Shown piece by piece: positions 45,001-48,000 of a stretch of DNA of 64,000 bases; the first letter of the stretch is position 1; every line of letters begins with the position of its first letter. Position numbers: made by a program. The DNA lies in IMG/VR virus record IMGVR_UViG_2687453508_000006. One strand, written 5' to 3'. The stretch is from a virus. Taxonomy: Duplodnaviria; Heunggongvirae; Uroviricota; Caudoviricetes.

Positions 45001-48000
45001 CAGAGGAAAGAAAATGTCATCGAAAAACCGGCCCCGCAGAACAACAACCCGCAACATCCGATTTCCAAACCAGATGATTGAACAAATTAACATCGCTCTT
45101 GACCAGAAAGGTTCAGAAAATTTTTCTGCGTGGGTCATTGAATCTTGCCGCCGGGAGCTGGCAGCAGACATAAAATATGCCCGTCAGTTGACTATAAAAA
45201 AGAATGATACACAGTATGCTCTGCGATGGCTGTTCATATAACTATTTCTTTATATTGCTGAATTTATAAAAACTCACAGACATTAGCTGTATTAATTCCG
45301 AATTGAAATAATCAGCCATATAGAATAAAAATAAAGCATAACAATAATAATCTTCTACCCAATCAGTACATTACTGCTGTGACTCCAACACGGCAGTTTT
45401 TTTATTGAACAGATTCCAGTTTCTTCCACCATCGCACCGGACGGGCGACCATGAGGGGAGAACGCCGCGCTCCGTTTACGCGGTAAACCCCGGTGTGTAT
45501 CGTTTTTTGATTATCCCCGCACACTCTCGCAGAGGAGTCTCCCTGTCGGGCTGCGGTCTCTGTTAATGCAGGAATACGGCGACGATACGGCGCATCAGCA
45601 AAACTTAGTTCAGGCACTGAGTGCGGATATAGTCCTGTGCCCCTTCCAGCTGCTTCTGCATTGTCATCAACCGTTCTCTGAGGATGAAATAATCCCGTTC
45701 AGCGGTGTCTGCCAGTCGGGGGCCGGTTGCATTATCCACGCCGGAGGTGCCGGTGGCTTCACGCACGGTACCGGAGCAGGTGGCGTTGATCCGCAGGCGC
45801 TTACGACCAGCGGCAACATCAGCACGCAGAGTTTCATTTTCAGCTCTCGCATCGGCTAACTCCCTCGAGTATTTTGCATCGAGCGCCAGCAACATCACGC
45901 TGGCGCACCTGCATGTCAGTAATGGTGGCATTCGCCTGTTCCAGCTCTCTGGCTTTTTTATCGCGCTGCGCTTTGTAGGTGAGCGCGTTGTCACGGTAAT
46001 GGTTTGTTGCCAGCCACAGCGCACCATAGCCAACCGCCAGGACAATAATCACCACACACAGAACACGGTTCATCTCTCTTTCACCCCACCAGTCCCGATA
46101 ACGTCAGGACTCGCCAGGCGGTGGAAAAGAAAATGGCAACCAGCATGACTAAAAATGAAATGCCGACAAGTACACAGAGGCTCTTCACCAGCGTTATGAG
46201 TTTATCTGATATCATTAGCCACCCCATCAATCCGCCTTTGTTATTTTCCCTTTGCCTGTATCAGCCAGGACAAAATCAATCAGCATATTCGCTTCATTTA
46301 CCAGCGTACGGATTTTTGATACATGCGCGGCTTTAACCTGTTTCCACTCATTCAGCCCGGTAGCAAACACACTGGCAATGTTTTTATCCGTTTCATGTCA
46401 GCACAAAGCCTGGTTGAGTTCTTCCATCACGCTCATTTTACGGGGATTAACGACAAAACCCTTCGTCCAGTACTCGTAAAGAACATCGTCGCACTCTTCC
46501 TGATACCGGATGACCTTATCGCGGATTTCGGGTTTTACTTTGTTGGGATTAATGGTTTGTAGCCAGCCGGCAAGTTTTCGAAGTGGCATGGACACCATAT
46601 TGCGTTGTTTCCCATCCTCAGCAACCATAACGATTTCCGTTATAGTTGACGCAAAACGCTGTCTTAACTTAGCCAACTGTGATTGCCAGGCCAGCCCCAT
46701 CCCCGCAACGACAGGTTTCATGGGAACGTATGGTTTTTGGTTAACTACATAAAGAGAGTTGCCGTGAAACGGCACGGCCATCATATTCATCGGTTATTTC
46801 CTTTTAGTGATGAACCTTGTCTCACAGGAATCCAGCCCACAGAAAGGCACCGACAGCCAAACCGGTATCCTCAAGGGTCATCCTGAAAGGTTCTGTGTTG
46901 TGAGATGCGCGTGAGATGCGCAGAAATGACAAAGGCATCATTACGGTGCCTGAGTTAAACAACTGCTTTGACTTTATTCACTTACATTTTGCCAATTTGC
47001 AGGATTTCGTGTTATCCGTCCATGTAAGCAAACCTCATTTTTCAGCAAAATATTCTGCTTATCTGTCGATTCCCCAGCACGCCAGCGCGCTCTCCTGGTC
47101 ACGACGGGATACCTGACCGTAACAGTTATTTGAGCGAATACGGCAGTCCCTGCCACCGTCCTTAATCCACCAGCGAATCGCTTCGCAGGCACCTTTTCGA
47201 TCTCCTGCATTAATCCGTCTGTAAAACGTCGACGGGAAACACTTACCGGGGCCAATGTTGTACGGACAGAATGACGCGATCCCCGCTTTCTGGGGTTCGG
47301 TCAGCGGCACTCTGATGTTTTTCTCCACCCATGCCAGCGCCTTATCACGCTCAATGGCGTTAACCCGGTCGCATTTTTCCTTCGACAGCTTCATGCCAGG
47401 AATAACAGGCTTACCATCCCCCCGGGTGGCTCCACGGCAGATGGTCCAGATACCCGCACCATCACGGTATGCTGTGGTGTGGTTACCTTCCTTTTCATCC
47501 AGAAACTGGTCGAGGATTTCAGGCGCAGACGCCCCTGCACCAATCAGCGCCAGAACGGCAGCCGACAGGCCGTATCTGATTTTTGCGTTCATGGATATTT
47601 ATCAGGGTTTATCGATTTCAAATCCCTGGATATGTTAAGTCTTCAGGCCAGCGGTCTCTCAGCTCCTGCTCCGGGTCCGCTTCCGGATTGCCCGCCACAA
47701 AATTCACCGCATCCAGAAAACGGGCATACACCCGGCGGCGGACCACCGTGGCCCCCACCAGGCTCTGCAGGTCCTCCGCCATCCCGGTGACCAGACCGAA
47801 CAGATTGGACACCGTCAGCGACGGGCGGGCACTGCTGCCCTTCCCGTTCATCTCAAAGCCACTGCCGTCAATCGGGTATACCTGATATTGCCGCCCCTGC
47901 CAGGTGACCGCCTCCCCTTTTTCATTCAGCTCATTACAGAAAAAATACCGCTCACCGCCCTGCACCGTCAGGTCGATTTCCCAGAGCACCACCCGCGGTG

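Follow-up and report, generated by a model that had tools for sequence, protein, structure and literature searches.

A private repeat joint that leaves a predicted SAR-type endolysin gene without an adjacent holin in an E. coli O157:H7 prophage sequence is most likely not the predominant chromosome structure

The tandem late-region repeat and its joint

The window (the whole 64-kb stretch of DNA analysed here) carries an Sp12/Sp10-hybrid lambdoid prophage of Sakai-lineage E. coli O157:H7, its tail genes identical to those of Sp12 and part of its head genes identical to those of Sp10. Wll001 carries the same hybrid and, additionally, a reciprocal hybrid prophage. In the window the late region, from the truncated tail gene L' to the endolysin gene R, stands as a 17.3-kb head-to-tail repeat, with two adjacent direct copies meeting at one novel joint. 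The repeat and the elements at its joint are as follows.

Repeat copy A, 30326..47647 (no strand): 17,322 bp, from L codon 135 to the 3' end of ydfR
Repeat copy B, 47648..64000 (no strand): truncated in the ant-R spacer, where the window ends
Novel joint, 47648..47655 (no strand): 8-bp microhomology CCAGCGGT, from a three-way alignment
Intact L of copy A, 30032..30730 (minus strand): 232 codons, equivalent to a Wll001 CDS of 699 nt; parent of the L side of the joint
Truncated L (L'), 47618..48052 (minus strand): 135 native codons, nine out-of-context codons (PEDLTYPGI) and a stop
DUF1327/YdfR-family gene remnant, 47643..47655 (minus strand): stop codon at 47643-47645 plus the last 10 nt, from alignment
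Native spacer from the ydfR-family gene to R, 47593..47642 (minus strand): 50 bp, 100% identical in EDL933, Sakai Sp10 and Sp12, and Wll001

Copy A holds L from codon 135, M, H, the tail, head and terminase genes, HNH, Rz/Rz1, ant and R, and runs leftward into an intact L-K-I-J; the R, ydfR and holin of copy B would lie past 64 kb, since the window ends in the ant-R spacer. The two copies align over 16.3 kb at 98.6-99.1% identity, far beyond chance. Between 47648 and 52400 about 96 substitutions set copy B apart from copy A, and their H genes differ in length by 163 bp (copy B has the short, 3,081-nt type of allele, copy A the 3,243-nt one); many small indels fall in the first 6.4 kb of copy B, and full identity of the two copies begins only at about 54.0 kb. 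Against known genomes, positions 1-24000 are 100% identical to Sakai and span the Sp11/Sp12 boundary, 12000-47655 show 0 mismatches to Wll001, the Wll001 locus that matches copy A also matches 52400-64000 with 0 mismatches, and EDL933 agrees with 60502-64000 at 100%. The head and lysis region of copy B matches the locus of copy A with 0 mismatches, as opposed to 31 and 98 for the other paralogues.

An earlier note on this DNA had described a repeat junction that cuts L in mid-gene and fuses it just upstream of R, and this arrangement is indeed present, with coordinates exact to the base. Homology to the interior of L begins exactly at 47648 (30326 in the intact copy) and identity to the upstream region of R extends to 47655, so that the joint is an 8-bp microhomology; CCAGCGGT is common to the ydfR 3' end and to L codons 133-135. 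The joint connects L codon 135 to the final codons of the DUF1327/ydfR gene, which lies 50 bp ahead of R. The 55 bp that separate R from the L homology (47593-47647) have the length and position that the note gave them, but the sequence is not unique: it is the native upstream region of R, and its 100% match in O157 genomes runs on to overlap the L homology by 8 bp. The reference annotation likewise leaves a 50-bp gap between the ydfR-family gene and R, and the reference ydfR protein has a Pfam DUF1327 match. On the other side of the joint, the L' reading frame covers positions 3-107 of the 206 in the Pfam Phage_tail_L profile and its stop codon lies 25 bp ahead of the R start. No promoter-like site or new terminator was found at the joint.

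Two properties of the joint bear on how it may have arisen. At least 8 bp would be shared at a random blunt joint with a chance of about 1e-4, and the immediate flanks run for 695 bp and 988 bp without private indels, which places the joint itself outside the worst of the sequence described below. The truncated L of EDL933 (363 nt) was considered as the breakpoint parent and rejected, its break lying 42 bp off (equivalent to 47690, against 47648 here).

The endolysin R and its lysis partners

Beside the joint lies R, followed by the remainder of the lysis genes; those of copy B that fall within the window are listed with them.

R of copy A, 47059..47592 (minus strand): 177 aa, intact; Pfam Phage_lysozyme PF00959, 1.5e-24
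Antirepressor (ant) of copy A, 46398..46790 (minus strand): 130 aa, shortened through private indels at 46387 and 46405; also a 6-bp deletion at 46734
Rz of copy A, 45605..46073 (minus strand): frameshifted by an extra private C at 45886
Rz1 of copy A, embedded, 45667..45852 (minus strand): intact
Rz of copy B, 62750-63217: intact; PF03245, 4.9e-50
Antirepressor of copy B, 63371-63940: intact, 189 aa

R is a GH24 phage lysozyme with an E35/D44/T50 triad (E-8x-D-5x-T). Its residues 9-174 align to the full-length phage 21 lysozyme 3HDE and to RrrD 4ZPU, with E35, D44 and T50 falling on the corresponding residues of both. Residues 8-24 read GLSAAVLALIGAGASAP, a Gly/Ala-rich segment of SAR type with G, A or S at 11 of its 17 positions, and this N-terminal segment aligns to that of 3HDE from residue 9. 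R is, judging by these alignments, a phage-21-type SAR endolysin with predicted export and release. The exact protein occurs on 631 contigs in a collection of about 15 billion proteins. SAR endolysins are exported by Sec and activated on membrane depolarisation, and their holin works in trans. This is established for the phage-21-type SAR endolysin/holin system, reportedly through studies by Xu, Park, Sun, Young and colleagues.

To place the missing holin, the gene order was read from five annotated reference loci (EDL933, Sakai Sp10, Sakai Sp12, Wll001 and F8798), with families assigned by Pfam and PHROG. All five run from the holin through the DUF1327/YdfR gene (345 nt) and a 50-bp spacer to R; the full order is a large DUF6645/SASA gene, a 71-aa holin, the 114-aa DUF1327/YdfR protein, the spacer, R, the antirepressor, a 48-aa membrane ORF and Rz/Rz1. 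The reference holin belongs to Pfam PF04971, 'Bacteriophage P21 holin S', and with its P21-type holin and R the reference locus is, by family assignment, a phage-21-type pinholin/SAR-endolysin cassette.

The earlier note had remarked that no holin stands where S would be expected. None precedes the R of copy A, but the expectation itself does not hold: in each of the five loci the holin lies two genes upstream of R, and by this order a holin was never to be expected directly beside R, with the break falling in ydfR. A holin elsewhere in the 64-kb window, which the note had proposed to look for, was likewise not found by tblastn with both reference-prophage holin variants (best E = 0.56). As for the suggestion that R is separated from its lysis partners, this is right for the holin and wrong for the others, as the antirepressor, the 48-aa membrane ORF and Rz/Rz1 still follow R in copy A.

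Set against the phage 21-type cassettes of the O157 Sp10, Sp12 and CP-933 family, then, the R of copy A shares the lysozyme triad and the N-terminal segment. The reference loci have a PF04971 holin upstream of R and Rz/Rz1 downstream, whereas the cassette of copy A starts at R, truncated L replaces the holin and the DUF1327 gene, and Rz and ant are frameshifted as written. The Rz frameshift is probably a sequence error.

Privacy of the joint and the cluster of events around it

A 601-bp probe over the joint was covered to at least 80% in 0 of 5,426 complete E. coli genomes (megablast), with one side of the probe matched in 4,167 of them. Exact scans for a 33-mer over the joint gave no match in IMG/VR, the GTDB representative genomes or the JGI metagenomes, and an exact-protein look-up among about 15 billion proteins returned neither the L' fusion protein nor any of seven frameshift products of the surrounding zone. 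The old Xuzhou21 assembly has a standard single Sp12, and a literature search for a 17-kb duplication in Sp12 found none. A 16-kb query spanning the joint did reach 100% coverage; this was discarded as evidence of the joint, the coverage being made up of two permuted pieces of a single-copy locus joined together. The joint is private to this sequence, and its absence elsewhere shows privacy, not falsity.

The joint is also not the only private feature of this sequence, and the others surround it.

Zone of private small indels and garbled stretches, 44573..54038 (no strand): 9.5 kb, holding 30 of the 30 such events in the window
Tape-measure gene H of copy B, 48386..51467 (minus strand): private deletions of 1-2 bp split it into at least four ORFs

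Seven of the events lie on the A side (44573-46953), where comparison with Wll001 and EDL933 shows 6-bp and 2-bp deletions among them, along with the frameshifts in Rz and ant. On the B side (48636-54038) there are the other 23, for the most part deletions of 1-2 bp, and the genes hit are H, tail-assembly, gp17 and head-closure genes. The remaining 54.5 kb of the window has 0 private events and is identical to Wll001, Sakai or EDL933; clustering of this kind around the joint has P ~1e-25. Each side of the zone, moreover, has a clean counterpart in the other copy: copy A is perfect opposite the event stretch of copy B, copy B is perfect from 54039 to 64000, and its counterpart of the A-side event stretch is 100% identical to EDL933. 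No complete genome matches the tail region of copy B at more than 98.3% identity, nor a 761-bp stretch on the A side at more than 98.7%.

The character of these events differs from that of divergence among real prophages. By the same leave-one-out test, indels make up 15 of 22 private events in the copy B tail region, versus 6 of 175 in genuine paralogous prophage tails (Fisher P = 6e-13). Eight of 23 private events sit on paralogue-variable columns, against a background of 5.5% (P = 2e-5), and the garbled stretches at 49982-50026 and 52198-52300 coincide with length differences between paralogues. The private events look like sequencing errors rather than evolution; such indels, variable-site errors and garbling are to be expected where a consensus mixes paralogous templates or draws on very few reads. 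The 32 template switches needed to describe the copy B tail, by themselves, were dropped as a sign of mixed consensus, given that genuine tails need 7-35 in the leave-one-out control.

How the joint may have come about

The joint most likely does not represent the true, predominant structure of the chromosome. On the error pattern alone, we hold with moderate confidence that it is an assembly or consensus artefact or derives from a minority molecule. Under this reading, the roughly 9.5 kb round the joint would be poorly supported consensus, for instance a bridge made from few reads or products in which paralogous prophage templates are partly mixed; beneath that bridge there would be a rare rearranged molecule or else a mis-join. 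The outcome that the earlier note had named as fatal to its own proposal, a junction chimeric in the assembly, is the more likely one here: the joint is private and sits inside a cluster of private indels. False tandem duplications and collapsed or mixed consensus in assemblies of multi-copy prophages offer close likenesses, in the private joint and nearby indel-type errors as well as in the errors on paralogue-variable sites and the garbling at paralogue length differences. In contrast to a purely computational mis-join, however, the microhomology and the clean 0.7-1 kb beside the joint are atypical. An 8-bp microhomology is the mark typically left by illegitimate recombination or template switching, so a chimera of purely computational or ligation origin explains the joint poorly, and at least one real recombinant molecule probably existed.

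If such a molecule was not rare but fixed, the repeat would be a genuine 17.3-kb tandem duplication of the late region, made in vivo via the 8-bp microhomology. Illegitimate recombination independent of RecA, or slippage during replication, would have produced it, either between sister chromosomes or inside a replicating prophage; the nearby indels would then be unrelated consensus errors, and gene conversion from other prophages would have changed the copy B tail at a later stage. We regard this as possible though doubtful. It accounts well for the microhomology, for the clean 0.7-1 kb on either side of the joint and for a copy B head and lysis region that agrees with the copy A locus and not with the other paralogues examined. 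The setting is also favourable: O157:H7 prophages drive large chromosomal rearrangements via homologous recombination (PMC8743559), their regions are known rearrangement hot spots (PMC8743559; PMC7430833), and the Sp11-Sp12 region is structurally unstable, with spontaneous deletions (PMC7430833, citing Chen et al. 2013), so that a real private rearrangement here would be unsurprising.

Several observations nonetheless count against a fixed duplication. A recent duplicate should match throughout, which 47648-52400, with its substitutions and its H difference, does not; the errors occur only near the joint, although reads anchored on the joint should resolve that part of the repeat best; and the joint is missing from all of the complete genomes searched, Wll001 with its 35.6 kb of mismatch-free agreement with the window among them. 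The comparison with known events is similarly divided. Adjacent copies and a single joint at 8 bp between unrelated sites are what microhomology-mediated, RecA-independent tandem duplication produces, but the copies here differ over the first 4.7 kb past the joint, which is where private indels cluster. The O157:H7 prophage rearrangements (PMC8743559) and Sp11-Sp12 deletions (cited in PMC7430833) involve the same region and the same paralogous lambdoid prophages; O157:H7 prophage rearrangements use long shared prophage sequence, whereas the joint here links non-homologous sites that share only the microhomology.

Very unlikely, in our view, is a genuine fusion of two prophages, with no duplication involved: the ydfR end of the hybrid would have been brought up against the middle of L in a second, differently mosaic prophage of the same orientation by an illegitimate deletion. 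Its appeal is that the copy B tail module, with the short H allele and a different L-M-H-T-G-V mosaic, is not a copy of that in copy A, and genuine prophage tails are comparably mosaic. Yet from 52400 on copy B agrees fully with the source locus of copy A and with none of the other paralogues examined, no prophage of Wll001 and no complete genome matches the B tail above the 98.3% already given, and the excess of indels would need a separate explanation.

A blunt technical join, whether untrimmed ends of a circular long-read contig rotated inward or mis-scaffolded contig ends, has an equally slight chance. A 17-kb overlap with low-quality sequence on both sides is the classic picture of untrimmed contig ends, but the 8 shared bp would be expected only about once in 10,000 such joins, and quality should be worst at the very ends, where the nearest 0.7-1 kb is in fact clean. 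Slimmer still is the prospect that the bacterial chromosome was scarred in vivo by an event resembling break-induced replication and mediated by microhomology. A broken ydfR-R end would have invaded L at the 8-bp microhomology and copied several kb at low fidelity, with repeated switches among paralogous prophage templates; the tandem duplication would result, together with numerous frameshifts and a finely mosaic sequence within a few kb of the joint.

For the lysis genes the choice hardly matters. An endolysin without a holin would, if the joint is an artefact or comes from a minority molecule, be a by-product of assembly and not a lysis-cassette design, and under the artefact, duplication, fusion or blunt-join reading alike it is incidental and not a new lysis arrangement. 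The case does carry a warning, namely that multi-copy lambdoid prophages in O157:H7 genomes yield false or poorly supported joints; if this joint is false, then the orphan endolysin, the truncated tail gene and the pseudogenised tape measure, Rz and antirepressor are all wrong inferences. A real joint would amount to an ordinary microhomology duplication, private to this sequence, in an already defective prophage, Sp12 being defective and non-excisable (PMC2669165).

Even in that case no effect on lysis is evident, since R is of the SAR type and a holin acting in trans makes an adjacent one unnecessary. With neither a promoter nor a new terminator at the joint, the R of copy A would still be read within the late transcript, so that the missing neighbour should have no obvious consequence. 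Were the joint to exist, this R, without a promoter of its own, would simply be read from the same Q-antiterminated late transcript at a point 17 kb more distal, and an S21-like holin, ydfR and a second R would be expected just past 64 kb. The R protein would be exported by Sec and released on depolarisation of the membrane by pinholin, wherever in the cell that is made.

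Implied exchange between Sp10 and Sp12

When the window is compared with the Sakai prophages over 30326-39326, its tail genes (30326-35326) are identical to Sp12 and part of its head region (36326-38326) is identical to Sp10; the prophage is a recombinant. Strain Wll001 carries the same hybrid at the locus matching the window prophage (L005), as well as the reciprocal one, in which the Sp12 Q/early region is joined to an Sp10 tail, at a second locus (L009). These hybrids imply that Sp10 and Sp12 underwent an exchange, in other words that the arrangement is inverted with respect to Sakai.

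Shared gene defects and a C-run difference

The window shows the following features in gene J and the annotated portal gene:

25102-28571: host-specificity gene J of the prophage that carries copy A (the first copy of the repeated late region), broken into two or more ORFs
37754-38377 and 54899-55522: three 162-bp (54-codon) units repeated in tandem within the gene annotated as portal protein
37300-38523 and 38520-39884: the two parts of the annotated portal gene, split or frameshifted

Gene J is also broken in the reference annotations, being frameshifted in Wll001 and represented by three CDS in Sakai Sp12, and its split is therefore a genuine, shared defect, in contrast to the private indels near the joint between the repeat copies. 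Within the portal gene, the repeat units show 94% and 82% identity to the first unit. The split or frameshift of this gene also occurs in Sakai Sp10 and Wll001; Sakai Sp12 has a single intact gene of 2,580 nt. A run of C residues, at 44590 in one window copy and 61738 in the other, has the length C7 in each, as it does in EDL933; in Wll001 it is C6, and the shorter run is probably a difference or error specific to that strain; this site was left out of the count of events private to the window.

Small ORFs of the lysis region

Two further genes are of interest here:

46081-46230, minus strand: conserved ORF of 48-49 aa between the antirepressor and Rz, with a counterpart at the equivalent place in copy B (the second repeat copy)
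47643-47655: remnant of a DUF1327/YdfR-family gene (Pfam DUF1327; PHROG 406), found for example at 35650-35994 in L005

The first, assigned to PHROG 4906 and labelled 'hypothetical' in every reference annotation, has a single strongly hydrophobic segment, and this putative membrane protein of the lysis cassette could be lysis-related. In the reference loci of these O157 prophages, the full form of the second invariably separates the pinholin gene from that of the SAR endolysin; its entries in the libraries searched (Pfam and PHROG) give no lysis role.

Insertion sequences at the Sp11/Sp12 boundary and tRNAs in Sp11

The Sp11/Sp12 boundary carries two insertion sequences, at ~15339-16647 and ~17690-20030:

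IS1203 (IS3 family), interrupting a dinI-like gene
ISEc8 (IS66 family; tnpA/tnpB/transposase), interrupting an IS256-family transposase remnant

The IS1203 insertion is present in Sakai and Wll001 and absent from EDL933. The lysis cassette of Sp11 itself lies past the window's left edge. Two tRNA genes lie within the late-promoter region of this neighbouring prophage:

618-694, minus strand: tRNA-Arg(tct)
795-870, minus strand: tRNA with a CAT anticodon

The latter is called tRNA-Met by ARAGORN, whereas its homologues in the reference prophages carry the annotation tRNA-Ile.
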